Assembly: GCA_963827955.1 (NCBI GenBank)
Contig: CAWHDJ010000018.1
Coordinates: 1,309,297-1,373,296 of the forward strand
From: an uncultured delta proteobacterium
GTDB lineage: Bacteria; Myxococcota_A; Polyangia; Polyangiales; Polyangiaceae
Length of the DNA stretch: 64,000 bases
Reading direction: 5' to 3'
Below are positions 2,961 through 51,202 of this stretch, one piece after another. Position numbers and translations under genes: made by a program. Under the pieces are notes generated by a model. The model worked only from the letters and a program-made list of their open reading frames with translations. It ran no database searches and had not been told where the DNA came from. Position 1 is the first letter of the stretch. Each line of letters starts with the position of its first letter.

Positions 2961-3098
2961 GTCGGTGCATCCTCGAGGCGCGGCGTACGACGTCAGTCGC
3001 AGCCCGCGGTCTTCCTCATGGAGGCGCTGGCGCTGTACGAGCCGCAGATCGGCTTGGTGCTCCTGGCCGGCGTCGAAGAAAGGGGTCGGTGCGCGGCC

Positions 3099-3995: not shown

Positions 3996-4736
3996 TGTCC
4001 GACGCATACGACGTAGAACGGCTCCTCGTCCTCCGGCAGTTGCAGGAGGGCGCCGAGCTTCCCGATCGTAGAATCCGCCGATCGCGGTCGGTCCGAGCCC
4101 GATCGCCGTGGAGACGAGGTAGATGTTCTGGCCGACGTGCCCGGCGTCGAGGAAGAGGTGCCGATAGCCACGCTGGCCGTACTTCCACATCGTCCGCTCC
4201 CGGATCGCCGTGATCACGACCACCACGTTCGCGTGGCGGGCGACCTCCTGATCCACCAGGAGATCGACCAGGATCGGCTGCGCGAGCCCAGGGACGACGT
4301 GCTCCAGCGCGTGGTCGCGCGCGTCGTAGTGGTAGATGCCGTCGGCGAGCCCCTCCACGGCCTGCGTCGCGACGTAGAGCTCGAGCGGATAACGCCCGCC
4401 GGCCGAGGGCGCCGGCCGGCGGAACCCCTCCTCGCCCGGCCCGCCCCGCGTGACGCGGACGCCGTACGACGCGTACAGGAGGCGCCCGAGCGTCGGGAGG
4501 GGCATGGGCCGGAGCGTGTAGTTGCGGACCGAGCGCCTCCGCTCGAGCGCGGCGCCGAGCGGCATGTCAATCGCGAAGTCCCTCCCGGGCAAGGCCGTGC
4601 GCGCGGCGCCGGGGTAGGTGCGGAGCTGCGCGGGCTGCCGGTCGAGGTCCATGATCGGCGCGATGATGCGCGCGCGCTCGTGAGAGGAGTGTGTGTGGAA
4701 GAGCCGGGCGACGTCCGCCTCGGTACGCGTTGCCAT
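3966..4736 (-). CDS. SagB-type (McbC-like) FMN-dependent azoline dehydrogenase; apparent frameshift near 4050
   Basis: The N-terminal 230 aa of ORF 3099..4736 carry nitroreductase/SagB motifs (RRSVRNYT, GGRYPLELYV, YHYDARDHAL, YRHLFLDAGHVGQNIYL). The conserved C-terminus IGKLGALLQLPEDEEPFYVVCVGQPADEEARP* is in another frame (ORF 3968..4171(-)). The frame switch falls at the GGFYD|IGKL junction. Confidence 0.75.
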
Positions 4737-4745
4737 CGCTTTGCC

Positions 4746-6838
4746 TCAGGCCATGGGGTGGGGATCGGGGTTGATGCCGCGGGAGGCCATCGCCGAGAGG
4801 CGCGGGTTGCCGAGCCGCTCGAGGCCATGGCCGAAGTGGATCTGCTGGAAGCGCGCGCCGAGGGCGCGGGCCACCCGGATCGGCGTGCCGGCGGAGATCC
4901 GGCGATGTCACGTCGACGATGGCGACGCGGAGCCCCGCGGCGGCGAGGCGCCTGCACAGCACGTCGGACGTGACGGCCTCGGGCTCGGGCAGATCGGCGG
5001 CCGCGACCTCGCCGCCTGCGCCCAGGAAGGCGAGCGCCCCCACGCGGTGCTTCGGCACGTAGTAGAGGGCATGGTCTTCGAGCGTCTGCACGTCCTCGGG
5101 ACGCTGCGGGATGGTCCGCTTTCCCTCCGCGACGAGCCGGCACATCCAGGGCCCGAGGTGGCCCTGCTCGAGCAGCGCCCGCGCGATGGCGGTGCGCGGC
5201 CGGAGGTGCGCGGCCATGGACACCGTGGCGCCGGGCCACCCCTCGCCGTCGCCGTACCCGACGCAGATCACGACGGGGATCCCCGCCCCCACCTCGAGCA
5301 GGTACAGCTCGACCCGCGTCCCGCGCTCCTCAATCTGGCGCGCCGCCTCGCGGGCCGCGGCGTCGACCGTCCGGTCGAGGAGCACGCGCCGCCCCGGGCG
5401 CCGCGTCAGCCACGCGATCATGAAGGCGTCGCGCTCGCAGAGCTCCAGCGCGGCCGAGAGCGCGGCGCGGTCGAGCGTCGGCCCGGCGGCCAGGCCGTTC
5501 GAGGTCACGTCGCAGAAGCGCGCTTCCGGGGTGACGGGGAAGCTCATGTAGGTGGGCAGCGCGGGGACCATCACGGGAGCGCGCGAGTCGAGCCAGAAGC
5601 CGCGCACCCAGTCGATCGTCGTGTACGGAGAGAGGCGCGCGAACGGGAAGCCCGGCTGGGCATACTGGCGGTCGCTGTAGAGGCCGAGATCCTGCGGAGA
5701 GAGGAAGTCGCCCTCCATCTCGGCCACGGCGGCGCGGAGCAACGAAGGGTGGTGGAAGCGGCTCGCCGAGTAACGCTCGACCGCCTCGCCCACGGCGCTC
5801 ACCAGGGCGCGCAGCGCGGTGGTGCCCTTGCCGGAGCCCAGCTCGGGGCCGGCGCAGCACGCCGGCACATCGCCCTCTGCCACGCGCGAGAGGACCGCGG
5901 AGGCCGCGATCGGTACGTCCGGCTCCAGCGGGGACGCCGCCGCGCGGACGACGAGGCCCCGGACGATGCCGGTGCGTCGATCCACGACGCCGGCCAGCAT
6001 GCGCCGCAGCTCCTCCGGATCGCGCGCTCGGTCCATGTCCTCGCCGTTGCCCTCGGGCGCGGCGGCGCCGAAGTGGTACGCCCCGCCGCAGACCGAGCAG
6101 TGCGGCATGCGCAGCACGGCGTGGAAGCTCCGCCTCCATCGTGACCAGGTTCTGGACGCAGAGCCGGCCGAGGAGGGGATGGGATCCGGGGCGCGCGAGC
6201 AGGTCGAGCACCGAGAGCGCGAGGGCATGTCCGAGCAGGGCGGGCATGGACGCGAGGTAGGTGCGGGCACGGGCGCGCGGCCGATCGGAGAGCCACGCGG
6301 CGTGGAGGGCGTGTTCGAGATCGAAGCTCGCGCTGGCGGCGAGGCGCCGGAGGCGACAGCACTCCCAGCACGCCGTCTTTCCCGGCACGACCGCCGGCCC
6401 GACGACCGCGTCGAGGCCGTCGAGGTGGGCGCCGATCGAGGCGAGAGAGGCCCGCTCGGCGAAGCGTGCGACGCTTTGCAGCGCGTGCAGATCGTCGCCC
6501 GGCAGCGCGGCGACGATCAGGTCCCAGCGCGCGTCGGGAAGGGCGAGGGAGCGATCCTGGTCGATCGCCAGCGGCCCCGCGGTGACGACACAGCGTGGCG
6601 CGGCCTCTGCCAGCGACGCGCGGAGCGCCTCCGCGCGCCCTCGCCCGAGGTCCTCTTCGCCGAAGAGGCGGGCATACGCCCGATCGTCGGCGGTGACCTC
6701 CCGGTCGTCGAGGATGTGGAGCGCGCCGAGCCCCGCCGCGGCGAGGTCGGTGGCTGCGACGGCTCCCCATGGCTCGACGCCGCAGAGGAGGACACGCGCG
6801 TGAGAGAACCTTGATTCGATGGACGATGACGTGGACAC
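4746..6838 (-). CDS. E1-like-YcaO fused azoline cyclodehydratase (PatD/TruD-like architecture); two apparent frameshifts
   Basis: The E1-like Rossmann domain lies in ORF 5330..6838(-): ARVLLCGVEPWGAVAATDLAAAGLGALHILD and GKTACWECC, running to ...LVTMEAEL. The sequence continues in the ORF 4567..6270 frame as HAVLRMPHCSVCGG... followed by the YcaO domain (GSGKGTTALRALVSAVGEAVERYSA, ...DRAALSAALELCERDAFMIAW). The YcaO C-terminal consensus GTPIRVARALGARFQQIHFGHGLERLGNPRL...NPDPHPMA* lies in a third frame. Frame switches are near 6140 and 4885. GTG start at 6838. Confidence 0.75.
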
Positions 6839-26773: not shown

Positions 26774-29192
26774 TCACTGGACGTTGCAGACGAGATCGGT
26801 GCCAGGCGTCGAGCCGCACACGGTGGTGACGACGGTCGACTTGGTGATCGCGATCTGCGTCTCCGTGTCGCCCGACGCGTTCGGGATCTGGATCGCGGGC
26901 ATCGTGAAGGTCGCGGTCTTGTAGTTCGTCGAGCTGAACGTGGCGGTCCCGAGCATCTGGTTCCACGTCTGGAACGAGTCTCCCAGCTCTGCGGCCGGAA
27001 CCTGACCACAGATGAGGCCGCTGCCGGTGCACGCGATGTTGCCCCACTGGTTGAATCCCGTCGCACATCCGACGCCCATCGCGGCTCGACCGTTGGTGTA
27101 GCTCCAGCTCGTCATTCCGTTCGGCACCGGCGTACAAGCGCCCCAGGTGAGCGTCGTCCCCGCCAGCGTTCCGCTCGCGTTGTCCACGCACGGTCGGGAG
27201 ATGGTCGGCTTGACGTTCGTGCACGCGGTGCCGCCGGCCCCGCAGTTGGCGGTGCCGGCGGCGAGCATGCCGAGGCTCGCGTCGACGCCGACGACGAGCG
27301 TCCCCGTCTGGCCGAGCACGGTGACCGCTTGCGAGAAGTAGATCGGGAGGTACTGCTCGACGAGGTAGACGGGGCCTGCCGTCGGGGTCCCCGTCGCGTC
27401 GTTCGTGAAGCGGAGGCGCAGCATGCCCTGGGTGAAGGTCGCGGTGGTGAACGGCGAAGTGTCGCCTGCTCCCGTGAACTTCGGAGTGTTCGGGTGCGTG
27501 GCGCCGACGTTCTCCGTGACGTTGGCCGCCGCGATGGGGGCTTGCGAATCGCGAACGTGCCCGAGATGTGGTACACGACGTCGGTGTACGTCCCGCACGA
27601 GGACGACGTACACGTCGGCGCCGCGCTCCACGTCCCCGAGGCCCCGCAGGTCGGATCGCCGCCCTTCTTGGTGTAGCCCGTGTTGCACGTGTACGCCGCG
27701 GTCGCGCCGAAGGTGTCCGTGCTCCCGCCGCCGTCGCCCCCGCTCACCGTCGGCGCGCCTGCGTTGGTCACGGTCGGCGGAGCGCCGCAGTTGATCGGCG
27801 CGCAGGTCGGCGCCTGCCCCCACGTGCCGTTGGCGCCGCACGTCGGGTCGGCGCCGTTCAGGGTGTAGCCGGTGTTGCACGTGTACGCCGCGGTCGCGCC
27901 GAAGGTGTCCGTGCTCCCGCCGCCGTCGCCGCCGCTCACCGTGGGCGCGCCCGCGTTGGTCACCGCCGGCGGAGCGCCGCAGCTCACCGGCGCGCACGTG
28001 GGCGCGGGCCCGGTGAACATCCCGTCGGCCTGGCAGGTCGCCATCGCGGTCCCCATCAGCGTGTAGCCGCTGTTGCAGCTATACGTCACCGTGTTGCCGA
28101 ACGTGGCCGTCGGCGCCGAGACGGAGCCGTTGGCCGGCGCCGTCGCTCCCGAGCACGTCACGGGGGTGCTGCAGTTGGTGCCGGTCCAGCCCGGGTCGCA
28201 CGTGCCGCACGTGTAGCCGGTGCCGCCGACCGGCATGCAGCCCGTCATGCTGTGTACGCACGGGTCCGGCGTGCAGCCGGTCATGATCTGGGTGCAGGTC
28301 GGCGCCGTGCCGCTCCACGTCCCGTCCGCCTGGCAGGTCTGCGTCGCGTTGCCGGTGAGCGCATAGCCGCCGTTGCAACTATAGGTCGCGACGGTCCCGG
28401 TGGTGCCCATCGTCGGCGTGACGCTGCCGTTGGCCGGCGGAACGAGGTTGGGCGTGCAGGGGCTGGGCGCGCAGGTCGGCGCGGGGGTGGCGAACGTCCC
28501 GTCCGACTGGCAGTCCGAAACGGCGGTGCCATTGAGCGTGTAGCCCATGTCGCAGGCGTAGGTCACCGAGTTGCCGAACGTGGCGCTCGACGAGGAGACC
28601 GTGCCGTTGGCCGGCGCGACGGCGCCGGTGCACGAGACCGGCACGTCGCAGTTGGTGCCCATCCAGCCCGGGTCGCACGTGCCGCACGTGTACCCGGTCG
28701 CGCCCATCGTCATGCATCCGGTCATGCTGTTCACGCACGGATCGGGGGTGCACGCCGTGTTCGTCGTCCCGCTGGAGCTCGAGCTGGCGCTCGTGGTGGA
28801 GCTGGCGCTCGTGGTGGAGCTCGCGCTCGCGCCGCCGGCCCCGCTCGAGCTGCTGGCCGCGCCGCCCGCCCCGCCGCCACCGCTGCTCGACGAGGTGGCG
28901 CTGCCCCCGGTCCCGCCGGCGCCGCTGCTCGACGAGGTGGTGCTGCCCCCGGCTCCGCTGGAGCTGGTCGACGAGGTGGCCGCGCCCCGGCTCCGCTGGA
29001 GCTGCTCGACGAGGTGGCCTTTCCGGTGCCGCTGGAGCTGGTCGACGAGGTGGCCGTGCCGCCGGTGCCGCCCGCGCCCCCGCTGCCGGTGGCCGTGGTG
29101 ATGGTCGAGGAACCACAGCCTGCGGCCACGAGGCCCAGCGCGACGATGGGGAGCGCCGCGGAGCGGTGCGGAGACGAAGAGCGCATGTTCAT
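26774..29192 (-). CDS. large lipoprotein with EGF-like and Sushi/CCP domain repeats (two apparent frameshifts)
   Basis: Lipoprotein signal MNMRSSSPHRSAALPIVALGLVAAGC (ATG ~29192; ORF 28731..29282) plus an S/T/G linker. About 5 Sushi-like units (C..P....NG.V......G..V.Y.C..GY.L.G...C...G.W.G..P.C) interleave with EGF-like CDPGW(M/T)GTNC (ORF 27112..28734). The C-terminal domain is in ORF 26774..27997. Confidence 0.65.
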
Positions 29193-33289: not shown

Positions 33290-34150
33290 TCGCGGCCCTG
33301 TGGAGCAAAGCGGGAGCGATGACCAGCGGAGCTGGAGCGATGCGGAGCGAAGCGGGTGCGATGCGGAGCGAAGTGGCTGCGATGCGGAGCGGAGCGGGGG
33401 CGATGCGGAGCGGAGCAGGGCCGCTGGGGAGCGAAGCAGGATTGCTGGAGGAAGGGAGATGGAATCGATGAGGAGGGAAGCAGGATCGCTGGGGAGCGAA
33501 GCGGGTGTGATGCGGAGCGAAGCTGGATCACTGGGGAGTGAAGCGGGGGTGCTGCGGAGCGGAGCGGGATCGCTGCGGAGCGGAGCGGGATCGCTGCGGA
33601 GCGGAGCGGGATCGCTGCGGAGCGGAGCGGGATTTCTGGGGGAGCGAAGCTGGTTTGCTGGGGAGCGAAGCAGGTGCGCTGCGGAGCGGAGCGGGGGTGC
33701 TGCGGAGCGAAGCGGGGGTGCTGGGGAGCGGAGCGGGGGCGATGGGGAGCGAAGCGGGTTTGCTGGGGAGCGAAGCGGGTTTGCTGGGGAGCGAAGCAGG
33801 TTTTCTGGGGGAGCGGAGCGGGTTTGCTGGGGAGCGAAGCCGGATTGCTGGGGAGCGGAGCGGGTGCGATGCGGAGCGGAGCGGGTGCGATGCGGAGCGA
33901 AGTGGGTGCGATGCGGAGCGAAGTGGGTGCGATGGGGAGCGGAGCGGGGGCGATGGGGAGTGAAGTGGGTGCGCTGGGGAGCGAAGTGGGTGCGTGGGGG
34001 AGCGGAGGGGGTGCGATGCGGAGCGGAACGGGTGCGATGCGGAGCGGAACGGGTGCGGTGCGAAGGGGAGCGGGAGCGATGGGGAGCGGGGCGGGCGCGA
34101 TGCGGAGCGGAGCGGGGGCGAAGCGGAGCGAGAGCGGAAGGGACGACCCC
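33290..34150. repeat. 21-bp minisatellite, ~40 tandem units (gcggagcgaagcgggtgcgat family)
   Basis: Head-to-tail units with sub-variants (gatgcggagcg / gctggggagcgaagcgggtttgct / gctgcggagcggagcgggatc). There are no intervening unique spacers. All six frames are open. Confidence 0.85.
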
Positions 34151-37300: not shown

Positions 37301-38081
37301 CGACCTCGCCCGGCGCGACCTCGACGAAGCCCTAACCCTCGCCACCCGAAATGGCTTCCCCCTCTTCGAAGCCGACGCCCACCTCGGCCTCGCCCGCCTT
37401 TACCTCGCCGAGGGCAATCCCGCCGCCGCCCGCGAGCACCTCGACCGCGCGCGAACGATCGTCGACGCCATCGGCTACCACCGCCGCGACCGCGAGCTGG
37501 CCGAGCTGGACGCCGCCTGCCCGGCGCCTCTCCAGGCGGTCGACCTCTTCGTGATCCTCAAGCTCGCCGCCCTGAGAGACCCATCGGCGCCGGCGTCCAT
37601 CGTGGCGGAGCAGACCGGGCTCTCGAACGACGCGGTCGCGCTGTCCCTGCACAGGCTCGGGGCGATGGGGCTCTTGAAGGAGGAGGGGGAGCACCGGCGG
37701 ATCAACAAGCTCGCGCTTCGCAAATGTCTCGAGGACGCCGTCCGCTGGATCGCGCCGGCGGAGCTGGGGGGGCTGGAGGTCGGCCTCCCCACGGCGCACT
37801 CGGCGCCCCCGCTGGCGGCGAAGCTGATCGGCGACGACGACCCCATGGTGATCCCGCTCCCGCAAGGTCCGGCGCGAGGGCGCGCGGTCACGCCCTTGCA
37901 CCCCCTCGCACCCGGGGCCGCAGCGCGCGATCCCAAGCTCTACGCGTTGCTCGCCCTCGTGGACGCCCTCCGCATCGGCGGGGCGAGGGAGCGCGAAGTT
38001 GCGGCGAAGGAGCTCGGGCACATCTATGAGGGGCGCGGAGCACATCCGGGCGATCCGCGCGGTGGTCGCGGCGTTCGGTGA
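34381..38081 (+). CDS. STAND NTPase: N-terminal nucleoside-phosphorylase (PNP_UDP_1)-like domain + NB-ARC P-loop ATPase + TPR array (apparent frameshifts near 35300 and 36620)
   Basis: PNP-like domain (IGIVVALPEE...IGIAGS...IEMESAAV) in ORF 34357..35529. NB-ARC motifs GGMGKSSL (Walker A), LLVLDGVE (Walker B) and GLALTLLGSY (GLPL) in ORF 35186..36655. TPR-like helical repeats in ORF 36438..38081. The C-terminal ~170 aa may be a separate wHTH gene. Confidence 0.7.
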
Positions 38082-38721
38082 GCGGGCCGAGCACTTCGTG
38101 TTCGTCGGTGGCTGCGTGCTCGGGTTTTATGCGCGTGCGGAGGGGCCGCCGCTGCGGATGACGGAGGACGTCGATTGCATCTCCTCGCTCTCTCCGTGGT
38201 CCGCGCAGGCCAAGATCCTCGCCGAGCTGTGCGAGGCCGGCGTGATCGAACCCGACGAGTCTCTCTCGTGCCGGTACAGGATCGTCGGCGCGCCCGTGGT
38301 CGTCGACGTGCTCTCGCCCGAGGGCTTCAACGTCGGCGGCGTCAACCCGTGGTTCGCGCGCGCTGCCGAGCGCGCAGCTCGCTACGAGATTGGAGATGGG
38401 GATACCGTGCGAGCCGTCACCCCGCCGTACTTCCTCGTCACGAAGCTCGTCGCGTTCGTCGATCGTGGCCCCGACGCGCAGTCTAGCAAGGACGCCGAGG
38501 ACATCGTGGCGCTGGCCGTCGAGGTGCCTTCGCTCGTGGATGAGGTACAGGCAGAGGGGCTGCGCAAGGACGTCGCCGCTCTGTGGGAGCGCGTGTTCGA
38601 AAAGTACGGGTTCGCGCGCTCGGACCTGGCGGACTTCGTCGACTGGCACCTCGACCGAGGGGATCGGCCAGACCGGGATCGCGCCATTGGTATGCTGTCC
38701 GAGCTGGCCGAGGTAGGTTGA
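38026..38721 (+). CDS. nucleotidyltransferase-fold protein (AbiEii/DUF1814-like)
   Basis: ORF 37999..38721; the preferred start is MRGAEH. NTase signature FVGGCVLGFYARAEGPPLRMTEDVDCI (hGG x17 DhD). Confidence 0.5.
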   Translation: MRGAEHIRAIRAVVAAFGERAEHFVFVGGCVLGFYARAEGPPLRMTEDVDCISSLSPWSAQAKILAELCEAGVIEPDESLSCRYRIVGAPVVVDVLSPEGFNVGGVNPWFARAAERAARYEIGDGDTVRAVTPPYFLVTKLVAFVDRGPDAQSSKDAEDIVALAVEVPSLVDEVQAEGLRKDVAALWERVFEKYGFARSDLADFVDWHLDRGDRPDRDRAIGMLSELAEVG

Positions 38722-38990: not shown

Positions 38991-39356
38991 CTACGTCACC
39001 TCTGCTCCCGCGCCTTCCGGTAGAGGAAGTCCACGACGATGAACCACACGGTCAGGAACGCCATGCCGAAGCCCCGCGCGACGTCGGAGCTGCCCGACCC
39101 TCTCGACGATCGTCCGGAGGACCAGCATCATCGCGATGCCGGCGAGGGCGAGCCTGCCGTACTTCACCCGAAGCGGGTCCGGCGGGTGCTTCCGGTTGCG
39201 GACGATCTGAAAGACCATCCAGCCAACGAAGCCCACCAGGAAGATGGCCACAGGGATGTCGGAGCGCTCACCGAGGCGCTCGACGACCCACGCCGCCACG
39301 CCCACGCCGGCGATGAGGGCAGCCCTCTGGATGTCGGTGCTGGTCACCTTGTTCAT
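38991..39356 (-). CDS. small membrane protein (2 TM)
   Basis: ATG at 39356 (MNKVTSTDIQRAALIAGVGVAAWVV...IFLVGFVGWMVFQIV). Lies 10 nt downstream of the preceding lipoprotein gene. Confidence 0.4.
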   Translation of the reverse strand: MNKVTSTDIQRAALIAGVGVAAWVVERLGERSDIPVAIFLVGFVGWMVFQIVRNRKHPPDPLRVKYGRLALAGIAMMLVLRTIVERVGQLRRRAGLRHGVPDRVVHRRGLPLPEGAGAEVT

Positions 39357-39365
39357 CTCGTCCCC

Positions 39366-40583
39366 TCAGTGAACGCAGATTCGCTCGATGACGGCCTTCG
39401 CGTACGCCCTCGAGCACTTGCCGAGCCCGGGACCCCCGGCCGCAAAGCCCGCGGCCACCGAGAACATCCCGCCGGACACCACCGCTGCGTAGCAGGCAGG
39501 AAAGGCCGCGCAAACCCCGAAGAACGCGAGACCTTCACTCGCGCAGAACGTCTCCCCCCATTCGTATGCCGCCTCGCTGCACTCGGGGTTCTTCCCGTCG
39601 TGCCAGACGTTGTGGTGGATGTACTCCCTCATCGAATCCCAGGCCGCGCCAGTACTCTTTCCGATCCAGTTGCTGGTCTTGGCAATCCACTTGATGCCCG
39701 GGGTCGCCGACTGGAAGTCGATGCAGTTGGCCTTGTAGGCGAAGTAGACGCTGCCCTCGCAGCGGATGAGCTCCTTCTCTTCCCCAGGGTCCGGCGTATA
39801 GCTCGCATCCTCTGGGCGCCCCGGCGGGAAGGACCCGTGCGACAAGTCGTCGGGGTAGACGCCGTTCTGCGCGAGGTGCTCGCACCCCGGTGGGGCCGGC
39901 GGAAGCGGCGGGGGCGACGTGTAATCGGGCTCGGGCGGGGGAGGGTGGGGAGGGGTTGGTTCCGTACCGCCACCCGTCGGGTGTCCGCCACCGCTCGGTG
40001 CCGGTCCCTGATGGTCATCGCCCGGGAGCGGCGGGGGAGGAGGGATCGTGGGCCCGCCGCCACCGTCCTCGAAGGTGGTGAGGCGGCGATACGCGGAGAG
40101 TGAGCGCGGCAGCAGCACCGGGTGCTCTTCCAGGTCCACGATCGCCATCTGGATCCCGACCCAATCGAGCGGGGTGAGCTTCATTTCGCTGCTCAGCCGC
40201 TCGAAGAACCGGTCCCCGTACAGCCATGCCTGGCGATAGAAGAGCGGGAAGCGGGTGTCCGGCAGGCCGTGCTCTCCCTGGCGGACGAGCACGATGTACG
40301 CGTGCTCGTCCACGAGGTCCGGGCGCGCCGAGGCGGCCCCATAGCGCGCGTGGTGGCCTTTGGGGGCAGCGATGTACGCCTTCCACGTGGGAACCCCAGG
40401 GATGTCCAGCGTCGGTTCCGTCGGCTCCGGTTCGAACGGCGGGATGGTGCCCGGGGCCACCACGGTCGTCGGGACCGTTGCGACCACCGCCTCCGGCGAT
40501 GCGCCGACCTCTTCGGGCGCGCTCACCTCCGCGGCGCAGGAGGTGAGCGCCAGCATCACCACGGTGCTCGCGAGCCGCTTCAT
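39366..40583 (-). CDS. lipoprotein with Pro-rich linker and C-terminal Cys-rich domain
   Basis: ATG at 40583 (MKRLASTVVMLALTSCAAEV lipobox). A PPPPLP/PPHPPPPEP linker precedes a 10-Cys C-terminal domain. Confidence 0.55.
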   Translation of the reverse strand: MKRLASTVVMLALTSCAAEVSAPEEVGASPEAVVATVPTTVVAPGTIPPFEPEPTEPTLDIPGVPTWKAYIAAPKGHHARYGAASARPDLVDEHAYIVLVRQGEHGLPDTRFPLFYRQAWLYGDRFFERLSSEMKLTPLDWVGIQMAIVDLEEHPVLLPRSLSAYRRLTTFEDGGGGPTIPPPPPLPGDDHQGPAPSGGGHPTGGGTEPTPPHPPPPEPDYTSPPPLPPAPPGCEHLAQNGVYPDDLSHGSFPPGRPEDASYTPDPGEEKELIRCEGSVYFAYKANCIDFQSATPGIKWIAKTSNWIGKSTGAAWDSMREYIHHNVWHDGKNPECSEAAYEWGETFCASEGLAFFGVCAAFPACYAAVVSGGMFSVAAGFAAGGPGLGKCSRAYAKAVIERICVH

Positions 40584-40895
40584 CCCGGCGCGTGCTAGAC
40601 GCGAAGCGCGAGGCGTCAAGGCTGGGTAGGTGGCTCGCGTGAGGCACGCGCAGTCCTGACCGCGTGCGCCAGGGATTACGCTTCATCCAGCGTCGCGTGG
40701 AACCGGGGCGAGCTGTCCAACCTCGGTGGGGTTGCTGCGCCGTTTCTCGGAACCGTCGCGCGCGAGCCCGCCATCTGCGGTCATCGACCGGAGGATGTGG
40801 CCCGGGCCGCGGCTCCAGCACCTCGCGTTGACGCGCAAGGCGCGCTCCTCTAGCCCTTGTAACCCTGGGGGTCTGCCCCGGAGGAGCGGCCGCGC

Positions 40896-43819
40896 ATGGA
40901 GACGAATCGACCGTACGACGACTTCGAAGAGTTTGCGGGCCTCCAGACCGTGCTCGAGCTCGAATCGCATCCGCTGGGAGGAGGTCCCTCCGTGGATCAA
41001 GGATCCGGGCTTGCTCGACCCGGAGGTGGCCTTCAAGGACGGCTTCGTCGAGCCGCTCGCGTACGAGTACCACCCCGCGCTCCTCTCGCCCGTGAAGGAC
41101 TGGGAGAAAGAGACGCTGAAGCTCCAGACCGGCGCAAGCGTGGTCGAGTTCGCGCCCGACGGGGCCTTCACGCCGAATCGAGCCGCCGCCCGGGATCTAC
41201 TGCGTCGTGAACGGGACCTTCAAGCTCGTGGTCACCCACGCGGGGCGCCGGCGGGTGGTGTCCGCGTGCGGCAGAGGGTGCCTGCTCGGGCTGCCGCGCC
41301 TCCTGCGCATGTACCACGCCAGGCTCGGGGTCGACGCGCCCTGGCCCAGGGACACGCGGGTGGAGGCCGTGGCGCTCGGAGGGACGCCCCCGAGCTCCGC
41401 TTCATGCCGCTGGAGAGCGCGTTCTACTTGATGAAGACGCGGCGCGATTTCCGCCGCTTCGTCGCCAACAACGTGGCGGTCCGCTTCGTCCACCACCGCC
41501 GCATCATGGAGGTCGTCCGCAGGAACTACGTCCTCCGCTACCTCCCTCCCGAGAGCCTCGAGTACGTGCTCCAGTTCGGCGCGCTCCGTCGCTTCGACGT
41601 CCTCTCGGAGTCGGACGGCGAGGCGCTCTCGCAGAACGTGCGCTACCTCGCGGCCGGCAGGCGCGCGAACCGGGGAGCCTCTGATCCTGGCGGGCCAGGC
41701 GAGCACGCACTTCCCGCGCCCCGAGCCGGAGAAGGACGGCTTGCGCGCCGATGCTCCGGGCCCGTTCGTCGGCGCGGGGTTGCCCGGCCAGCTCGTTGGC
41801 TACGAGAACATCATCACCGACACGGAGCCCACGCGCCGCACCGACATCTACATCACGCAGGGCACGGAGTTCCTCGAGTTCTGCTGGTACGTCATGAAGG
41901 TGGTGGAGAACGGATCGCTGCTCGCGTTCAACCGGGGCTTCCAGGTCATGGCCGGAGAGACGGAGGCCGAGCCCATCGCGCCGGTGGTCAGCTTCCAGGC
42001 CGCGCACCCCGGCCTCAACGTCGTCACGCTGGCCTACGGCGCCGCGGCGTCGCTGGCGCACGACGCGGGGGGCAGCGTCGTCGTCATCGACCTCCAGGGG
42101 ACGGAGAGCTTCATGCGGGCGATCGAGGCCCCCGAGCCCATCAAGGACATCGAGATGCCCGAGCCCGCCGACCCCAACCCTGTCTCCGAGCTCCTCGCGC
42201 GCTGGAACACGACGCTGATGCCGGTCCCCATCGACCAGCGCACGGGGGGCGTCCCCCAGCTCGTGGTCCGCTGGCCCAAGGCGGGGGAGGGCGCGCGCCT
42301 GACGGTCGAGGACGTCCTGCAGACGATCGAGCTGGAGCGCATGGGAAATGGCCCGCGCAGGATCGTGGTCGTCCACGACCCCGCGCCCGGGGACGACCCG
42401 ACGTTCGCCCACGATCTGGCCGAGCGCCTCAACCTCCAGAGCGAGGCCGTCTTCTACGTGGGCGACGACTCCGACGCCAAGTACCACCTCAGCGAGGAGG
42501 AGCCGGACACGCTGACCTGGGTGTTCCGGATGAACCGCGCCTACGTCGAGCGGGAGCGCAAGCACACGGAGAAGCTCGAGGGGGACACGGTCGACAGGCA
42601 CTACACGACGCGCCGGGTCGTCCGCATCCCGGAGGCGCGCAACGATCTCCTCGACGTGCGCACGGAGGAGATCCGCGCGGAGGTCGACGGCATCGACCCC
42701 AGGAACGTGGATCCCTCCCGCATGGCGCGGGCGTTCCAGCCCGAGGTGATCAAGCGGTCACCGCTCGCCCGCGCGTTCCACCGCCTCGCCCGCGTCGTGG
42801 AGCGGCGCACGGTGGGCGTGGCCCTGAGCGGCGGGGGGGCCTGGGGGTTCTGCCACATCCCGCTGCTCATGAAGCTCGAGGCCGAGGGGGTCCCCGTCGA
42901 CTTCGTGACCGGCACGTCGTTCGGCTCCGTGATCGGCGCGATCTACACCGCCGGCGGCACGGCCGCCCTCAAGGCGTTCATCGAGGAGAACTGCATGAAG
43001 CCGGGGGAGTGGCAAGCGGCCCGCCTCACGGGCTCCATCCGCGGCGTGCTCGACAGCGAGCTCACGACGACCATCCTGGGCCTCACCCCAATCGACTCCA
43101 GGTTCCTCGAGCGCTTCATCAACCGAGAGGCGCAGCGCTACGGCACCGGCGGCCCGCCGCTCCTCATGACCACCGAGATCCCCTTCTACCCGGTCGGCAC
43201 CGACCTCGACGGGCTGCACGAGTTCTTCGACGTCCGGAAGAGCCTGGGATGGGGCGTGCGCATGTCGGGCGCCATGCCCCCCATCTATCCCCCGGTGGAG
43301 GTCTCCGTGACGGGGAAGGGCAAGTCGCCTCCCCCTCCGCTGACCGACCCCAGGTACGAGTTCACCTTCCGCGCGAACCCGCCGCGGGCGCGGGACGAGC
43401 ACCACGTCGTCGACGGCGCGTTCATCGCCAACGTCCCTTCCCGCGTCGCGCGCAGCGTCGGCGCAGACTTCGTGATCGCCGCCAACGTCATCCCGCCCAC
43501 CCCGGAGGAGGCGCCGCGCATGGGCGGTATCCTGGGCATGTTCCAGGCGATGTTCGAGACCTTCACGCCGACGGGGCTGCTCCGCCGCGCCGACAATCTG
43601 AACCGCGGCACCTTCCTCCAGACCTGGAAGGGCGGTGACGACCAGGGCCGCATCTGGGCGGAGTACCGGGTGACCCTCCAGCCCCAGGGCTTCCAGTTCT
43701 ACGAGATGTGGCGCGGGCAGGACATCTGCGAGCAGATGGGACACCGAATCGACGTCTACGGCATCCGCGACCTGCGCGAGCGGTGGGAGGCCCTCTCTCC
43801 GGCCCGCCGGGGAGGTTGA
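40896..43819 (+). CDS. cNMP-binding-domain / patatin-like phospholipase (NTE-like; several apparent frameshifts in N-terminal third)
   Basis: The N-terminus (METNRPYDDFEEFAGLQTVLE...) and a cNMP-binding-like segment (FAPDGAFTPNRAA..NGTFKLVVTHAGRRRVVSACGRGCLLG...) are spread over three frames. The patatin domain is intact in ORF 41741..43819: GVALSGGGAWGFCHIPLL, GTSFGSVIGAIY (GxSxG) and VVDGAFIANVP (catalytic Asp). Confidence 0.6.
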
Positions 43820-45498: not shown

Positions 45499-46272
45499 TC
45501 ACCCCCCTCGCGCGATGGCCTCCACGTTCGCCACCACGCTCTCCACCTCCGCATCCGACGTATCCACCGTATGGTGCGCCTGCCGGTACAGCCCCTCGCG
45601 CTCCCGGAGGAGCTGCCGCAGCCGCTTCATCGCGAGCGGGTCGTTCTCCATCGGCCGGTGGTCGCCCTGGGCCACCACGCGCTCCCAGTGAACCTCGGGC
45701 CGCGCCTTCAGCCAAACGGTCGTCGCGTTCCGGCGTAGCAGGTCCCACGTAGCGGCCTCGGCCACGATGCCGCCGCCCGTGGCGATCACGACGCGCGGCG
45801 TGCCATCGAGGATCTTGGCGAGCGCCTCGCGCTCGAGGCGCCGGTAGTACGTCTCGCCGTGCAGCTCCCAGATCTCGGCGAGCGAGAGGCCGGCCGCCTC
45901 CTCGATCCGGGCGTCGAGCTCGACGAACGTGCGGCCGAGGCGCTCGGCGACCGCGCGGCCGACCGTGCTCTTGCCCGCGCCGCGCAGCCCGAGCAGCGCG
46001 AGGACCTCGTTCGGCGGCGCGAGGAGCGCGACGGGCGTTGTCTCGAGCGCGCCCGCGATCTCGAACAGGCTCCGCAGCGAGGGGTTGCCCTGCCCGCTCT
46101 CGACGTGCGTGAGGAACCGCTCCGAGAGCCCCGCGCGCTCCGCGAGCTCCCGCCGGCTCCAGCCGAGCTCGTGCCGGCGTGCCCGGACGCGGCTCCCGAC
46201 CCGCGCGAGGAGCTCGTCGGCTCGTCCGGAGAGGCTCGGGGTGGACGTCACGGAAGGCACTATAGTGCGCAT
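45499..46272 (-). CDS. BzdR/BoxR-type regulator: XRE-family HTH fused to shikimate-kinase-like domain
   Basis: ATG at 46272. HTH RVRARRHELGWSRRELAERAGLSERFLTHVESGQ; P-loop LGLRGAGKSTVGRAVAERLG and an AroK-like fold. Divergent from boxC, 40 bp away. Confidence 0.7.
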   Translation of the reverse strand: MRTIVPSVTSTPSLSGRADELLARVGSRVRARRHELGWSRRELAERAGLSERFLTHVESGQGNPSLRSLFEIAGALETTPVALLAPPNEVLALLGLRGAGKSTVGRAVAERLGRTFVELDARIEEAAGLSLAEIWELHGETYYRRLEREALAKILDGTPRVVIATGGGIVAEAATWDLLRRNATTVWLKARPEVHWERVVAQGDHRPMENDPLAMKRLRQLLREREGLYRQAHHTVDTSDAEVESVVANVEAIARGG

Positions 46273-46311
46273 CTCGCCGCCGAGGCAACCCGACGATAGG
46301 AACTTTAGTGC

Positions 46312-48011
46312 TTGACGCAGGAGCCCTCGGTCGCCAGGATGCCGGCCATGACGGACTTCGAGACGTCTCCCGACCGCTACGTGCACTGGAAGCTCTCCAC
46401 GGACGGCGCCGTCGCGCGCCTCGCGCTCGCGGTGCAGGAGGAGCGTCCCCACGTGCCGACTCACGATGGGGGCTCCGCCCCCAAACCCCCGGGCTACCGC
46501 CTCAAGCTCAACTCGTACGACCTCGGCGTCGACATCGAGCTGGCGGACGTGGTGCAGCGCCTTCGCTTCGAGCACCCGGAGGTGAAGGCGGTCGTCGTGA
46601 CGTCGGCGCTGCCGAACGTGTTCTGCGCCGGCGCGAACATCATGATGCTCTCGGCCTCGACGCACCCGTTCAAGGTCAACTTCTGCAAGTACACGAACGA
46701 CACCCGCTGCTCGATCGAGGACGCGAGCGCGCACTCGGGCCAGCGCTGGATCTGCGCGGCGAACGGCACGGCCTCGGGCGGCGGCTACGAGCTCGCGCTC
46801 GCGTGCGACGAGATCGTCCTGGTGGACGACGGCAACTCCGCGGTGTCGCTGCCCGAGGTGCCGCTCCTCGGCGTGCTGCCGGGCACGGGGGGGCTGACGC
46901 GCCTCGTCGACAAGCGCAAGGTCCGGCGCGATCTCGCGGACGTGTTCTCGACGCTGGCCGAGGGCTGCAAGGCGAAGAAGGCCCTGGAGTGGAAGCTCGT
47001 GGACGCGGTGTTCTCGCGCTCGAAGTTCGAGGCTGGCGTGAACGAGCGCGCCGCGAAGGCGGCGGCGAGGCCGTCGAAGAAGGAGGGGGCGAAGGGCATC
47101 CGGCTGCTCCCGCTCGCGCCGGCCGTCTCGGACTCGAAGATCGAGTACCGGCACGTCACGCTGGAGCTCGACAGGCCCCACCGCCTCGCGACGCTCACGA
47201 TCCGCGGTCCCGAGGGCGCGCCGCCCTCCTCGGCGTCGGCCGTCCACGAGCTGGGGAGCGACTTCTGGTCGCTCCGCGCGATGCGCGAGCTGGACGACGC
47301 GCTCTGCCACCTCCGCTTCGACTGCCCCGAGATCGGCCTCGTGCTGATCAAGACGGTCGGCGACACCGGCAACATGCTGGCGTGGAGCGATTTTCCGGCG
47401 GCGCACCGCGACGACTGGCTGGTGAACGAGATCGTGCTCCACACGGCGCGCACGCTCCGTCGCCTCGACGGGATGGCGAAGAGCCTCTTCGCCGTCGTCG
47501 AGCCGGGGAGCTGCTTCGCGGGCGAGCCTTCGAGGTCGCGCTCGCGTGCGACCGCATCTACATGCTGAACGACGCGAGCCGCCCGGTCACGGTCGCCATC
47601 GGCAAGCTCGGCGCGGGCACGCTCCCGATGCAGAACGGCCTCTCGCGCCTCGCGTCGCGGTTCCTGGGCGACCCCGGGCGCGCGGCGCGGCTCATGGACG
47701 AGCGGGGCACGTTCGACGCCGAGGCCGCGGTGGAGGCAGGGCTCGTGACGGTCGCCCCCGACGAGATCGACTGGGAGGACGACCTGCGGCTCGCCATCGA
47801 GGAGCGCGTCTCCCTCTCCCCCGACGCGCTCACGGGCATGGAGGCGTCGCTGCGCTTCGGGGGGCCGGAGACGACGGACAGCAAGATCTACGGGCGGCTC
47901 ACCGCCTGGCAGAACTGGATTTTCACGCGCCCCAACGCCACCGGCGAGAGCGGCGCGCTCAAGCTCTTCGGGCAGCCGGAGCGCCCCAAGTTCGACTGGA
48001 GGAGGACCTGA
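46312..48011 (+). CDS. boxC: benzoyl-CoA-dihydrodiol lyase (2,3-epoxybenzoyl-CoA dihydrolase), crotonase superfamily (apparent frameshift near 47520)
   Basis: The N-terminal 400 aa are in ORF 46312..47568 (FETSPDRYVHWKL...). The C-terminus is in ORF 46308..48011 (...IYGRLTAWQNWIFTRPNATGESGALKLFGQPERPKFDWRRT*). Confidence 0.75.
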
Positions 48012-48013
48012 CC

Positions 48014-49426
48014 ATGGCCATCGACCTTCAAGCCAAGATCCCGAACAACGTCGACCTGGCGAACGATCCCAAGCTCCAGCGCGCGCTCGAGCACTGGCAG
48101 CCCAAGTACATCGACTGGTGGATGGACATGGGCCCGAGCGACTTCGCGGGCAACGACATCTACCTCCGGACGGCGATCGGCGTCGGCAAGGGCGGCTGGG
48201 CGAACTTCGGGTACGTGAAGATGCCGGAGTACCGCTGGGGCATCTTCCTCGCGGAGCCGGAGCCGGAGCGGAAGATCCATTTCGGCGATCCCGTCGGGAC
48301 GCCGGCCTGGAACGTGGTCCCCGGCGAGCTGCGCCGCCTGCTCCGCCGCCTCGTCGTCACGCAGGCGGACACCGAGCCCGCGAGCGTCGAGCAGCAGCGC
48401 CTGCTCGGGCACACGGCGCCCTCGCTGATCGACCTCCGCAACCTCTTCCAGGTGAACGTGGAGGAGGGCCGGCACCTCTGGGCCATGGTGTACCTGCTCC
48501 ACAAGTACTTCGGCGCCGACGGCCGCGACGAGGCGGAGGACCTGCTCCGTCGCCGCTCCGGCAACCCCGACAACCCGCGCATCCTGCAGGCCTTCAACAA
48601 GCCCGTCGAGGACTGGCTCACGTTCTTCTGCTTCACCGCCTTCACCGACCGTGACGGCAAGTACCAGCTCGCGGCGCTCGCCGAGAGCGGCTTCGACCCG
48701 CTCGCGCGCTCCACGCAGTTCATGCTCACGGAGGAGGCGCACCACCTCTCGGTCGGCGAGAACGGCGTGGGCCGCGTCGTCGAGCGCACCGCCCAGCTCA
48801 TGAAGGAGGGGACCGACCCGCGCAAGGTCGGCGCCATCCCGCTCGACATCATCCAGAAGTACGTCAACGACTGGTCGTCCTCCAGCAACGACCTCTTCGG
48901 CGGCGAGGACTCGACCAACGCGGCCGAGGCCTTCTCCCTCGGCGTGAAGGGCCGCTACCGCGAGGGCGACGGCCTCTACAAGGACCCGAAGGCGCTCGAC
49001 CAGGTGTACACGACCCAGGTCGAGCGGGACGGCAAGCTCGGTACCGTGGAGATCCCGCTCCGCCGCGCCATGAACGCGCTCCTCCTCGACTCGTACCACG
49101 CCGACTGCGCGCGCATCGTCGACCGCTGGAACCGCACGCTCGCCAAGTACGGCGTCGACACCAAGATCACGCTGCCCAGCCTGCGCTTCAACCGCCAGCA
49201 GGGCATCCACGCGGGCAAGAGCTACAACCCCGAAGGCCAGCCCATCTCGGCCGAGGAGTTCGCGAGGCGGAAGGCCGAGTGGTTCTCGACCGACGAGGAC
49301 CGCGCCTACGTGAAGAGCTGCATGGTGAAGGTGCACGAGCGCGGCAAGTTCGCGAACTGGATCGCGCCCCCGCACGCCGGCATCAACGAGCAGCCGGTCG
49401 ACTACGAGTACGTTCAGTTCCACTAG
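48014..49426 (+). CDS. boxB: benzoyl-CoA 2,3-epoxidase (oxygenase) component B, diiron
   Basis: Intact 470-aa ORF. The N-terminus MAIDLQAKIPNNVDLANDPKLQRALEHWQPKYIDWWMDMGP is nearly identical to characterised BoxB N-termini. Confidence 0.85.
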   Translation: MAIDLQAKIPNNVDLANDPKLQRALEHWQPKYIDWWMDMGPSDFAGNDIYLRTAIGVGKGGWANFGYVKMPEYRWGIFLAEPEPERKIHFGDPVGTPAWNVVPGELRRLLRRLVVTQADTEPASVEQQRLLGHTAPSLIDLRNLFQVNVEEGRHLWAMVYLLHKYFGADGRDEAEDLLRRRSGNPDNPRILQAFNKPVEDWLTFFCFTAFTDRDGKYQLAALAESGFDPLARSTQFMLTEEAHHLSVGENGVGRVVERTAQLMKEGTDPRKVGAIPLDIIQKYVNDWSSSSNDLFGGEDSTNAAEAFSLGVKGRYREGDGLYKDPKALDQVYTTQVERDGKLGTVEIPLRRAMNALLLDSYHADCARIVDRWNRTLAKYGVDTKITLPSLRFNRQQGIHAGKSYNPEGQPISAEEFARRKAEWFSTDEDRAYVKSCMVKVHERGKFANWIAPPHAGINEQPVDYEYVQFH

Positions 49427-49482
49427 TTGACGATGGGGGGGCTCCGCCCCCCCCAAACCCCCCGAGAGGGGTTGGAGGTTCG

Positions 49483-49821
49483 ATGCAGAGCGGTAAGCGG
49501 CTCGTGTACGTCTGCGAGGGCGGCGATTGCAGCGAGAAGGGGTCCATCGACCTCCACGCCGAGCTCGGGGACATGCTCCACGAGCGTGACAAGGACGGGA
49601 CGAACCGGCTGCGGAAGTACCCGTGCTTCGGCGGCTGCGAGCACGGTATCAACGTGGTGCTCTTCCCGGACCGCGTCTTCTACAGCAAGGTCCAGAGCTC
49701 CGATCTGCCCGAGATCGTCGAGCACCTGACCGGCGACGGCGAGCCCGTGAAGCGGCTCACGGGCTGCGTGGCGAAGGACGTCGAGCAGATCGTGTGGGAT
49801 CTGCTCGACACCGGGTTCTAG
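49483..49821 (+). CDS. thioredoxin-like [2Fe-2S] ferredoxin (NuoE-like)
   Basis: ATG at 49483 preceded by ggagg. Cys ligands CEGGDC...CFGGCEHG. Confidence 0.7.
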   Translation: MQSGKRLVYVCEGGDCSEKGSIDLHAELGDMLHERDKDGTNRLRKYPCFGGCEHGINVVLFPDRVFYSKVQSSDLPEIVEHLTGDGEPVKRLTGCVAKDVEQIVWDLLDTGF

Positions 49822-49849
49822 TCCGCAACCGGATTGAGAGCCGGAATTT

Positions 49850-49950
49850 CAACGCAGAGACGCAGAGACGCAGAGACGCAAAAAGGCAAAGGAGAGAGAG
49901 CTTTGATTTTTCCGCTTTTTTGCGTCCCTGCGTCTCTGCGTCTCTGCGTT
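49850..49950. terminator. AT-rich giant hairpin (35-bp stem, one mismatch) between the NuoE-like and NuoF-like genes
   Basis: caacgcagagacgcagagacgcagagacgcaaaaa-[31-nt loop]-tttttgcgtccctgcgtctctgcgtctctgcgttg. It contains a (cagagacg)x3 internal repeat. Local GC is far below the ~70% background. Confidence 0.4.
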
Positions 49951-49994
49951 GAAAATTCTTCGTCTCCAAACCGCTCGGTGCTCCAGGGATCGTC

Positions 49995-51202
49995 ATGGCG
50001 CTCCTCCTGACCCGCCCCCCCGACGCCGAGCCCGAGTGGTTCGACGACTACCTGAGTTTCGGCGGCTACGCCGCGCTCTCCCAGGCGCGCGCAGGCTCGC
50101 CCGACGCGGTGCTCGAGGCCGTGCGCGCGTCCGGCTTGCGCGGGCGCGGGGGGGCGGGGTTCCCCGCGTGGCAGAAGTGGGAGCTGGCGCAGGCGTCGTC
50201 CTCACCCGCCCACCCGACGAAGCACGTGGTCGTGAACGGCGGAGAGCACGAGCCGGGCAGCCGCAAGGACCGCTTCCTCGTGGCGCGCTACCCGCACCGC
50301 GTGCTCGAGGGGGCCGCCCTGTGCGCGTTCGCGACCGGCGCGTCGTCCATCGTGCTCTACCTGATCGAGGACATGGCCGACGCCATCGGGGCGGCCCGCC
50401 GCGCGATTGACGAGGCCACGGCGGCGGGGCACCTCGCGGGGCTCGACGTGAAGGTCGCGCTCGCGCCCACCACGTACGTCGCGGGAGAGGAGACGGCTGC
50501 GCTCGAGGTCATCGAGGGCAGGAAGGCCTGGCCTCGCAAGAAGCCGCCGTTCCCCGGCAAGGTGGGCCTCTTCGGCCAGCCGACCACGGTGCAGAACGTC
50601 GAGACCATGGCGTGGGTGGCCGGCATCGTGCGCCACGGGCCGGCGTGGTTCTCGCCCGGCGCCATGCTCTGCACGCTCGACGACAGCTTCGCGCGGCCGG
50701 GTCTCGTCGAGGTGCCGCTCGGCACCACCCTGCGCGCGCTGGTCGAGGACCACGGCGGAGGTACGCGCGGTGGCCGCCCGGTCAAGGCGATCCTCCCGCG
50801 CTGTCGAGCGCCTTCCTGCCGGCCTCCGCGCTCGACACGCCCATGACCCACGAGGCGATGCGCGCCGCCGGCTCGAACCTGGGCTGCGGCGGCGTCTCGG
50901 TCGTGGAGGAGGGCACGTGCATCGTGGAGCGCGCCCTCGGGATCGCGAACTTCTTCAAGGCCGAGCAGTGCGGGCAGTGCCCGCCGTGCCGGATGGAGAC
51001 CGCGACGATCGCCGCCGTCTTCCAGAAGGTGGCCGCGGGGGAGCCGGGAGACTACGCGGCGCAGGTCGAGAAGATCACGGCGTTCGCGCGCGGCAAGGGG
51101 AACTGCAGCCTGATCGAGATGGCGGCGGCGCCCGCGCTCTCGGCGCTCCGCCTCTTCCCCGGCGACTTCTCGGCGCACGCCGCCACCGGGCGCTGCCCTT
51201 AG
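49995..51202 (+). CDS. NuoF-like NAD(P)H-binding FMN/[4Fe-4S] flavoprotein (apparent frameshift near 50760)
   Basis: RGRGGAGFPAWQKW and SLBB region in ORF 49995..50846. 4Fe-4S motif CGQCPPCR and the C-terminus in ORF 50612..51202. Confidence 0.7.

Follow-up and report, generated by a model that had tools for sequence, protein, structure and literature searches.

What does the interrupted gene at positions 40896-43819 (+ strand) encode, and does it belong to a defence system? We addressed these questions in a 64-kb stretch of contig CAWHDJ010000018.1 from an uncultured delta proteobacterium, hereafter called the window. An earlier note, made from the sequence of the window, had read the locus as a cyclic nucleotide monophosphate (cNMP)-binding domain fused to a patatin-like phospholipase of the NTE type, reminiscent of CapV effectors and located in a defence island. 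The locus is a single gene for a five-part protein, which consists of two cNMP-binding-fold (CNB) domains, CNB-A and CNB-B, a ParA/MinD-fold domain, a patatin domain and a helical C-terminal extension. Taken as a whole, it is best explained as the gene for a full-length, ligand-gated lipid esterase with artefactual frame breaks and a role outside defence, a reading to which we assign a probability of about 0.62.

One gene in five frame pieces

The sole long frame on the + strand with coding-type G+C content at third codon positions (GC3) between 40.6 and 43.9 kb extends from 41741 to 43819. It encodes 692 amino acids and is publicly recorded as P0001, on a contig of 1.78 Mb. The homologues found with this open reading frame (ORF) are 920-1020 amino acids long and cover 94-99% of the ORF, but are about 250 residues longer at the N-terminus, the closest being P0002 (47% identity, 947 amino acids) and P0003 (42%, 977 amino acids). 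A tblastn search with these two proteins against 40.0-44.2 kb showed that the approximately 780 nucleotides upstream of the long ORF are protein-coding over three frames, and that the N-termini of P0002 and P0003 map onto 40987-41742 with successive parts in alternating frames. A Viterbi segmentation based on GC3 and stop codons alone placed frame switches at 41177/41178, 41378/41379 and 41670/41671, which recovers the last three of four breaks within a few bases. With frames numbered as the coordinate modulo 3, so that the ATG at 40896 opens frame 0, the gene and its breaks are as follows:

40896..43819 (+): whole gene, 973 amino acids once the four frameshifts are mended (ORF list, homologue tblastn, family alignment)
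40974 (+): frameshift 1, gain of one base or loss of two (frame 0 to 1; three-frame reading)
41176 (+): frameshift 2, within CNB-A, gain of one base or loss of two (frame 1 to 2)
41387-41391 (+): frameshift 3, in a C5 run within CNB-A, loss of one base (frame 2 to 1)
41672-41675 (+): frameshift 4, in a G4 run where CNB-B begins, gain of one base or loss of two (frame 1 to 2)

Frameshift 1 is the least certain of the four, as it was placed only by reading and by the likeness of METNRPYDDFEEF to the N-termini of the homologues. At frameshift 2, the alignments to both P0002 and P0003 run on past 41176 in another frame, and after frameshift 4, frame 2 continues unbroken to the stop codon at 43817-43819. 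Joined together, the five pieces give a protein of 973 amino acids that aligns with the family along its full length. A Shine-Dalgarno-like GGAGGAG was read from the sequence at 40880-40886 (+), 9 nucleotides 5' of the ATG, and together with the stop codon this shows that the earlier note had drawn the boundaries of the gene correctly. The first in-frame start of the long ORF, the TTG at 41741, falls inside the beta-roll of CNB-B and coincides with no domain boundary. Because its start falls inside a domain, the 692-residue product is not a natural unit, whichever reading of the frame breaks holds, and its annotation appears to be an artefact of the breaks. By eye, the repaired N-terminus shows no signal peptide, secretion signal or membrane segment (no predictor was run), and because of this the 973-residue protein is probably cytoplasmic.

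Domain organisation of the repaired protein

The domains of the repaired protein are:

41110..41560 (+): CNB-A, first cNMP-binding-fold domain (Pfam partial match, family alignment, P0002 model and Foldseek)
41599..41932 (+): CNB-B, second cNMP-binding-fold domain (invariant columns, alignment, weak hhalign register, Foldseek)
41966..42650 (+): ParA/MinD-fold (SIMIBI) domain with a degenerate P-loop
42806..43477 (+): patatin domain (PF01734, PDB profile search, Foldseek, invariant columns)
43478..43816 (+): conserved, mostly helical C-terminal extension of the patatin domain (family alignment and model)

The second CNB domain and the ParA/MinD-fold domain, which occupies about 230 residues between the CNB and patatin domains, were not part of the earlier description. 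An AlphaFold model was made for the homologue P0002, which is 47% identical to the window protein, from a 21-sequence family alignment (pTM 0.76, N-terminal pLDDT about 80-90). In Foldseek, PKA-R and PKG, with their tandem CNB domains, are among its best PDB matches (E 4e-9 to 1e-7, probability 1.0), and as judged from this model the N-terminus is a tandem CNB fold. The cNMP-binding fold was thus recognised, and the proposed fusion of cNMP-binding-type domains N-terminal to an intact patatin domain is borne out. The beta-roll segment that had been singled out in the sequence is real and sits in CNB-A. There, the Pfam cNMP_binding profile (PF00027) matches residues 95-137 of the repaired protein with 14.6 bits (E 0.03), which does not pass the cut-off of 27.5. 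The PF00027 check suggested in the earlier note therefore fails for the window protein itself, while P0007, P0011 and P0014 pass with 29-32 bits; P0002 reaches 26.3 bits. In the alignment, CNB-A has G-L-P (within 41270-41305) in place of the canonical G-E-L and no family-conserved Arg. The cassette of CNB-B, GQLVGYENIITDTEPTRRTDIYI (41786-41854), follows the pattern G-x-E ... P-x-R-x-T and retains the family-invariant residues G297, G301, E303, P311 and R313. In the numbering of P0002 the invariant columns are G278, G282, E284, P297 and R299, where the window reads GQLVGYENIITDTEPTRRTD.

The domain that follows has the SIMIBI fold of ParA and MinD and lacks the deviant Walker A motif KGGxGK[ST]. 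Its P-loop region reads AHPGLNVVT at 41984-42028 (family consensus ARPGLGTT), with no Walker A lysine, while a switch-I-like VVVIDLQG and a Walker-B-like IVVVHDPAPG are kept. Because the Walker A lysine has been lost, the domain is probably no ATPase, and its sequence suggests that it probably serves as a scaffold or dimerisation module. It differs from the ParA/MinD ATPases in that both the lysine and the GK[ST] are absent and the domain is embedded in a lipase, so that ATP hydrolysis is unlikely.

The patatin domain is intact, as had been proposed. It scores 52.9-53.6 bits against Pfam Patatin (PF01734; cut-off 27.7) and contains the oxyanion loop SGGGAWG (42827-42847), the nucleophile Ser674 in GTSFG (42911-42925) and Asp839 in VDGAF (43409-43423), and the motifs of the Ser-Asp dyad are invariant in the family alignments. 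The canonical oxyanion/phosphate loop of patatins is G-G-G-x-[RK]-G. In this family a Trp occupies the basic position, giving GGGAWG in 27 of 28 members, and among about 130 relatives the basic residue was found in only one, as GGGARG. The corresponding Arg of CapV, R21, has been proposed to hold the phosphate of the lipid (PMC12480259). A substrate other than an ordinary phospholipid is therefore plausible, because Trp replaces the phosphate-contacting Arg/Lys across the family.

The closest solved patatin is PlpD (profile E 3e-27, 98 bits; Foldseek E 9e-9), while VipD, the cUMP-AMP-activated phospholipase of CBASS (21 bits) and ExoU reach only 15-22 bits in the PDB profile search. An identity as the housekeeping lipase RssA/YchK, a grouping that the earlier note had named as contrary to its reading, was rejected. 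The NCBIfam RssA equivalog (NF007623) gives 50.8 bits for P0002 and 63.5 bits for P0004, against the 272 bits required, and the match covers about 60 residues around the oxyanion loop and the nucleophile. The C-terminal extension is common to the CNB-patatin relatives of about 770 amino acids.

The family and its gene neighbourhoods

A profile search of 1.84 billion cluster representatives returned 310 representatives at E<=1e-30, of which just 25-30 or so span the full architecture. The remaining ones share the patatin domain and the C-terminal part, and many are about 770 amino acids long. We inspected eight homologue loci (L001-L005, L086, L087 and L088). In five of these, the gene abuts a divergent set of genes for FabH-like, acyltransferase, SDR, CMD and UbiE-like methyltransferase proteins. 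This lipid-gene set is followed, in the same five loci, by a gene for a DZR-Guanylate_cyc-AAA_16 protein of about 1085 amino acids, which is a class III cyclase. The set and the cyclase gene are located at:

L003, 705-7981
L004, 630-7905
L086, 2620-9877
L087, 2220-9877
L088, 4720-9282

By NCBIfam, the cyclase protein is related to a TOMM kinase/cyclase fusion, and no NCBIfam equivalog names the cluster of FabH-like, acyltransferase, SDR, CMD and methyltransferase genes. The other three loci (L001, L002 and L005) have no cyclase nearby. L001 and L002 contain a second CNB-patatin gene (630-633 amino acids) and a gene for a Ser/Thr-kinase-AAA_16-GAF-histidine-kinase protein of about 1785 amino acids directly downstream. 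L005 has a CNB-patatin gene of 660 amino acids, followed by a FabH-like/acyltransferase/SDR/methyltransferase set, and the kinase lies beyond, about 4 kb off. In addition, L002 contains Coq4 and L004 has a faint tocopherol-cyclase match. Scanning genome contigs with the family alignment yielded only distant patatins of <=30% identity, which matched through generic patatin motifs and provided no useful synteny. Literature searches on bacterial CNB-patatin enzymes found no characterisation, and the family is a small, uncharacterised variant of the NTE-like cNMP-domain patatin enzymes.

Frame breaks across the window

Similar breaks occur in at least six more genes of the window, namely those for an aldo-keto reductase, a NuoF-like protein, an FAD monooxygenase, BoxC, a STAND protein and an M16 peptidase. 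Besides the four breaks in the patatin gene, the Viterbi segmentation picks out about 14 other candidate places in the 64 kb where the frame changes on the same strand, none of which are gene boundaries. Examples of candidate frame-change sites elsewhere in the window are:

30349, 32018, 35325, 36600, 44222, 47527, 50796, 51630 and 52055

In the aldo-keto reductase, Pfam profile positions 48-189 and 192-289 lie in different frames, and in the NuoF-like gene the frame changes within the SLBB domain. In BoxC, one frame accounts for positions 2-380 of the 548 in the NCBIfam profile and the match carries on in another, and the profile of the FAD monooxygenase likewise continues in the other frame after a change at about 44222. 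By reading, the M16 peptidase gene is split at about 30349 and 32018, and the STAND gene at about 35325 and 36600, with the motif FGRE..ELAWL spanning the first break of the latter. The assembly appears to be rich in indels, because unrelated genes, catabolic ones included, also have broken frames. Homopolymer runs (C5 and G4) hold two of the four break sites in the patatin gene. The repaired N-terminal 259 amino acids are 47.8% identical to P0002, as compared to 44.4% over the same columns for the intact pair P0002/P0003, and because the repaired N-terminus is no more diverged than this pair, no decay or relaxed selection is seen. We consider it likely that the four frame breaks stem from indel errors in an error-prone assembly and that the organism makes the full-length protein. 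The spread of the N-terminus over three frames, which the earlier note had pointed out, thus holds for the coding signal (tblastn and Viterbi), but as biology it is most likely an assembly artefact. Programmed frameshifting was rejected, since the four sites have differing contexts and the shifts go in both directions.

Two further observations concern sequencing errors. The motifs TCGAG/CTCGA or GAGCT/AGCTC lie within 12 nucleotides of 8 of the 18 candidate frameshift sites, compared to a background of 20%, where the positions of the sites are approximate. The enrichment hints weakly that errors may arise systematically at a modified motif, as in methylation-linked basecalling; it is suggestive only and was not used. 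At L087 and L088, which are ENA assemblies with contig_N names, the partner genes are fragmented (FabH 228 amino acids, cyclase 269 amino acids) and P0013 is only 843 amino acids long, which suggests the same kind of indel errors in long-contig metagenome assemblies. P0001 has the same pair of sources, NCBI and ENA, as these two loci.

A proposed function in lipid remodelling

A regulatory role in catalysis has been proposed for the CNB sites of NTE/SWS-type enzymes (PMC9025805; PMC12710771). By analogy with these proposals, CNB-B would bind a small ligand, for which a 3',5'-cyclic nucleotide is the likeliest candidate, and this binding would release an autoinhibition of the patatin domain. 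The released patatin domain would cleave a lipid ester, possibly that of a neutral or specialised lipid, and the ParA-like module may mediate oligomerisation. The physiological role would then be signal-controlled lipid remodelling rather than abortive-infection defence, because in the relatives a conserved lipid-synthesis cluster accompanies the gene, as do genes for large AAA_16 signalling proteins, one of which is a class III cyclase. It is also conceivable, although improbable, that the family forms the output arm of an undescribed axis. In this axis a STAND-type (AAA_16-TPR) class III cyclase would produce a cyclic nucleotide that binds CNB-B. The neighbouring FabH-like, acyltransferase, SDR and methyltransferase genes would supply a specialised lipid other than a phospholipid, which the patatin domain would cleave or remodel; alternatively, the enzyme would bring about self-destruction of the membrane. 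The copy in the window would be a stand-alone paralogue that responds to the same messenger.

Genes surrounding the patatin gene

The G+C content of the window is about 71%, with a dip to 0.68 at 36-40 kb. The neighbouring genes are:

34357-~37500 (+): STAND gene with N-terminal PNP_UDP_1, NB-ARC/AAA_16 and TPR (PADLOC PDC-M60C, E 9e-14)
~37550-38721 (+): AbiEi-like and AbiEii nucleotidyltransferase pair (PADLOC PDC-M21A/B, E 2e-30 and 5e-27; Pfam AbiEii, E 1e-8)
38991-39356 (-): small membrane-protein gene, upstream of the patatin gene
39366-40619 (-): lipoprotein-like gene, upstream of the patatin gene
43845-~44900 (+): FAD-dependent monooxygenase of the tetracycline-destructase/PRK07588 type, directly downstream
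45499-51193: box (benzoyl-CoA oxidation) cluster, with BoxC at 46312-48011, a BoxB-like di-iron protein at 47999-49423 and a NuoF-like flavoprotein at 49989-51193
45499-46350 (-): BoxR-like regulator, helix-turn-helix and shikimate kinase

The last 70 or so profile positions of the FAD monooxygenase were not found in any frame, and beyond this gene there is a lipoprotein gene and then the box cluster. The STAND gene and the AbiE-like pair match candidate models in PADLOC, and a small defence islet at 34.3-38.7 kb is credible. This part of the defence island that had been drawn at 34-44 kb is thus plausible, while the patatin gene is linked to it by proximity only. The PNP domain of the STAND protein also matches the "PN-superfamily" effector model for CBASS in PADLOC. 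We rejected the STAND gene as the usual AAA_16 partner of the family, since it has a PNP_UDP_1 effector and no cyclase or kinase, and since tblastn with the partners finds no counterpart. Nor does the likeness to a CapV-type effector hold up. The PADLOC model for the CBASS phospholipase effector (PDLC00755) gives 13.3 bits (E 0.008) for the repaired protein with no stretch passing, and CapV has no sensor domain (PMC12480259). Models for CD-NTases and cyclases had no match among the neighbours at 34.3-40.6 kb nor among the other scanned ORFs, a scan that is not exhaustive for CD-NTases.

A 21-bp tandem repeat with 38.5 copies and the consensus AGCGGAGCGGGTGCGCTGCGG (81% matches) is located at 33325-34137, within a stretch of about 1.5 kb without coding signal just 5' of the STAND gene. 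The ORF at 27538-28557 (-) contains four Sushi/SCR repeats (Pfam E 8e-38), a domain that is uncommon in bacteria. At 1047-6748 (-) there is a TOMM-like set, which consists of a YcaO cyclodehydratase (4900-6123), ThiF-like pieces (6128-6748 and 3102-3962) and a Ser/Thr kinase (1047-2993).

Alternative explanations

Several observations weigh against a full-length, ligand-gated lipid esterase outside defence. The four breaks are confined to 0.8 kb with none in the next 2.1 kb, which is the densest cluster in the window and has a Poisson probability of about 1e-4 to 4e-3 by our own estimate, with the window rate taken as about 0.3-0.8 breaks per kb. A scan of metagenome contigs with the repaired N-terminal 637 amino acids found no relative and hence no independent assembly. 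The CNB sequence of the window itself remains below the Pfam threshold, and the fold evidence comes from the homologue P0002. In CNB-A the phosphate-binding cassette has, by its sequence, clearly degenerated, and in CNB-B the canonical G-E is interrupted by one additional residue. Compared with E. coli CRP by hhalign, the family aligns only weakly (E 0.03, probability 1.6%), and the alignment serves only to set the register with G-E...R-S-A. The conserved partner genes are absent from the window, where tblastn matches only unrelated kinases and a histidine kinase. No cyclase domain was detected in the six-frame ORFs of the window with a hidden Markov model built from four cyclase domains of the homologue loci (best E 0.45), in agreement with the earlier note, which saw no CD-NTase or cyclase gene nearby. 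The lipid and cyclase context is thus borrowed from relatives that are 30-47% identical, and genes of defence type lie only 2 kb away. The position of the breaks in the first 780 nucleotides, at a density above the window average, would be expected if the frameshifts were real and the N-terminal sensor region had been inactivated very recently. The locus would then be a pseudogene or encode an internally started protein of about 692 amino acids, in which part of CNB-B, the ParA-like domain and the patatin domain would make up a deregulated or dead lipase. Consistent with this are the location outside the conserved neighbourhood of the family, the missing C-terminal end of the adjoining FAD monooxygenase, as in a decaying region, and the two break sites outside homopolymer runs. 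However, the broken frames of BoxC, the aldo-keto reductase and many other unrelated genes suggest an assembly problem, the divergence of the repaired N-terminus is not raised and its coding GC3 is kept in each local frame, and an internal start at 41741 would lie within a beta-roll rather than at a domain boundary. We therefore regard a real inactivation as unlikely.

Whether the CNB folds are cyclic-nucleotide receptors is a separate matter. They could instead bind another small molecule or none, as in CooA, NtcA, CprK and trypanosome PKA-R, and act, with the ParA-like pseudo-ATPase, only as a scaffold for autoinhibition or dimerisation. The absence of the cassette Glu and Arg from CNB-A, the G-x-E of CNB-B and an insertion of 8-20 residues inside the cassette of most members would fit with this, as would the marginal Pfam scores (14.6-32 bits), the Foldseek matches to the cAMP-independent, nucleoside-binding PKA-R of Trypanosoma (6hyq, 6flo) and the three loci without a nearby cyclase. 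Yet all family members keep the residues G, G, E, P and R in the cassette of CNB-B, the spacing from Glu to Arg in the window equals the canonical one by our count, and five loci have conserved a class III cyclase gene nearby. We consider a non-receptor role the less likely reading. Even if the CNB domains do sense a cyclic nucleotide, the protein might be an abortive-infection effector of the Pycsar or CBASS kind, in which a distant cyclase signals, the CNB domains sense and the patatin domain destroys the membrane, and the gene would form one island with the STAND and AbiE-like genes 2-6 kb upstream. Such a role would be in line with the dip in G+C content, with the fact that patatins are the commonest CBASS effectors (PMC12480259) and CNB domains the receptors of Pycsar (PMC11224242), and with the fusion of the relatives' cyclase to a STAND-type AAA_16 module. 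Against this, the CBASS phospholipase model does not pass, the structural profile prefers PlpD over the cUMP-AMP-activated phospholipase, no frame of the window contains a cyclase domain, and the STAND and AbiE genes are separated from the patatin gene by two genes on the opposite strand. Furthermore, the lipid-synthesis neighbourhood of the homologues is stable across lineages that are 30-40% identical, unlike mobile defence islands, and the literature searches found no CNB-patatin defence effector. A defence role is thus very improbable.

Comparison with known systems

The layout of CNB folds N-terminal to a patatin-type Ser-Asp esterase in one polypeptide is shared with NTE (PNPLA6, Swiss-cheese) and PNPLA7. 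The oxyanion loop of NTE carries the canonical Arg, whereas the family studied here has GGGAWG. NTE has been described as having an N-terminal transmembrane anchor, three CNB domains and a C-terminal patatin (NEST) domain (PMC9025805). As compared by this described layout, the window protein differs in that it has two CNB domains rather than three, an inserted ParA/MinD-like domain that NTE lacks, and no hydrophobic N-terminal segment or membrane anchor evident by eye. The "NTE-type architecture" of the earlier note thus applies to the order of the CNB and patatin domains, but not to the remainder of the protein.

PlpD of Pseudomonas aeruginosa (type Vd, PDB 5fya/5fqu), the nearest solved patatin by both profile and fold, has a patatin domain that is the passenger of an outer-membrane autotransporter. 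It lacks the CNB and ParA-like domains, while the window protein has no evident secretion signal. CapV and the other patatin effectors of CBASS are similar in that a patatin-fold lipase is placed under the control of a nucleotide second messenger, a control that is here a proposal. CapV, a single-domain protein, forms filaments and takes up 3'3'-cGAMP on its patatin dimer (PMC12480259). Its gene lies beside that of a CD-NTase, for which, as for a cyclase, there was no match near the window gene. In Pycsar, a CNB sensor is likewise fused to a toxic or enzymatic effector, which is a transmembrane or TIR domain encoded in a two-gene operon with a pyrimidine cyclase (PMC11224242). The effector in the window is instead a patatin, the window contains no cyclase operon, and no patatin variant of Pycsar was found in the literature searches. 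The shorter bacterial CNB-patatins of about 630-830 amino acids (such as P0031, P0032 and the second gene at L001, L002 and L005) also contain the patatin domain with its C-terminal extension and GGGA[WLF]G. Their CNB domains pass the Pfam threshold clearly (P0032, 72 bits), and they have no match to the profile region of the ParA/MinD-like domain.

Implications

Any split, truncated or multi-frame gene in this indel-rich window is suspect. The publicly recorded product of 692 amino acids is a truncation that results from the frame breaks, and the gene is best read as encoding about 973 amino acids. Its nearness to the STAND and Abi genes is insufficient to call it a defence effector. Bacterial cNMP-domain patatin enzymes are annotated in many genomes, and the sub-family described here combines this layout with a ParA/MinD-like pseudo-ATPase and has a Trp at the position of the phosphate-binding Arg. 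The most useful lead is provided by the cyclase and the lipid cluster of the relatives, which offer a testable link between cyclic nucleotides and lipid metabolism in bacteria of the Myxococcota and Binatia type.

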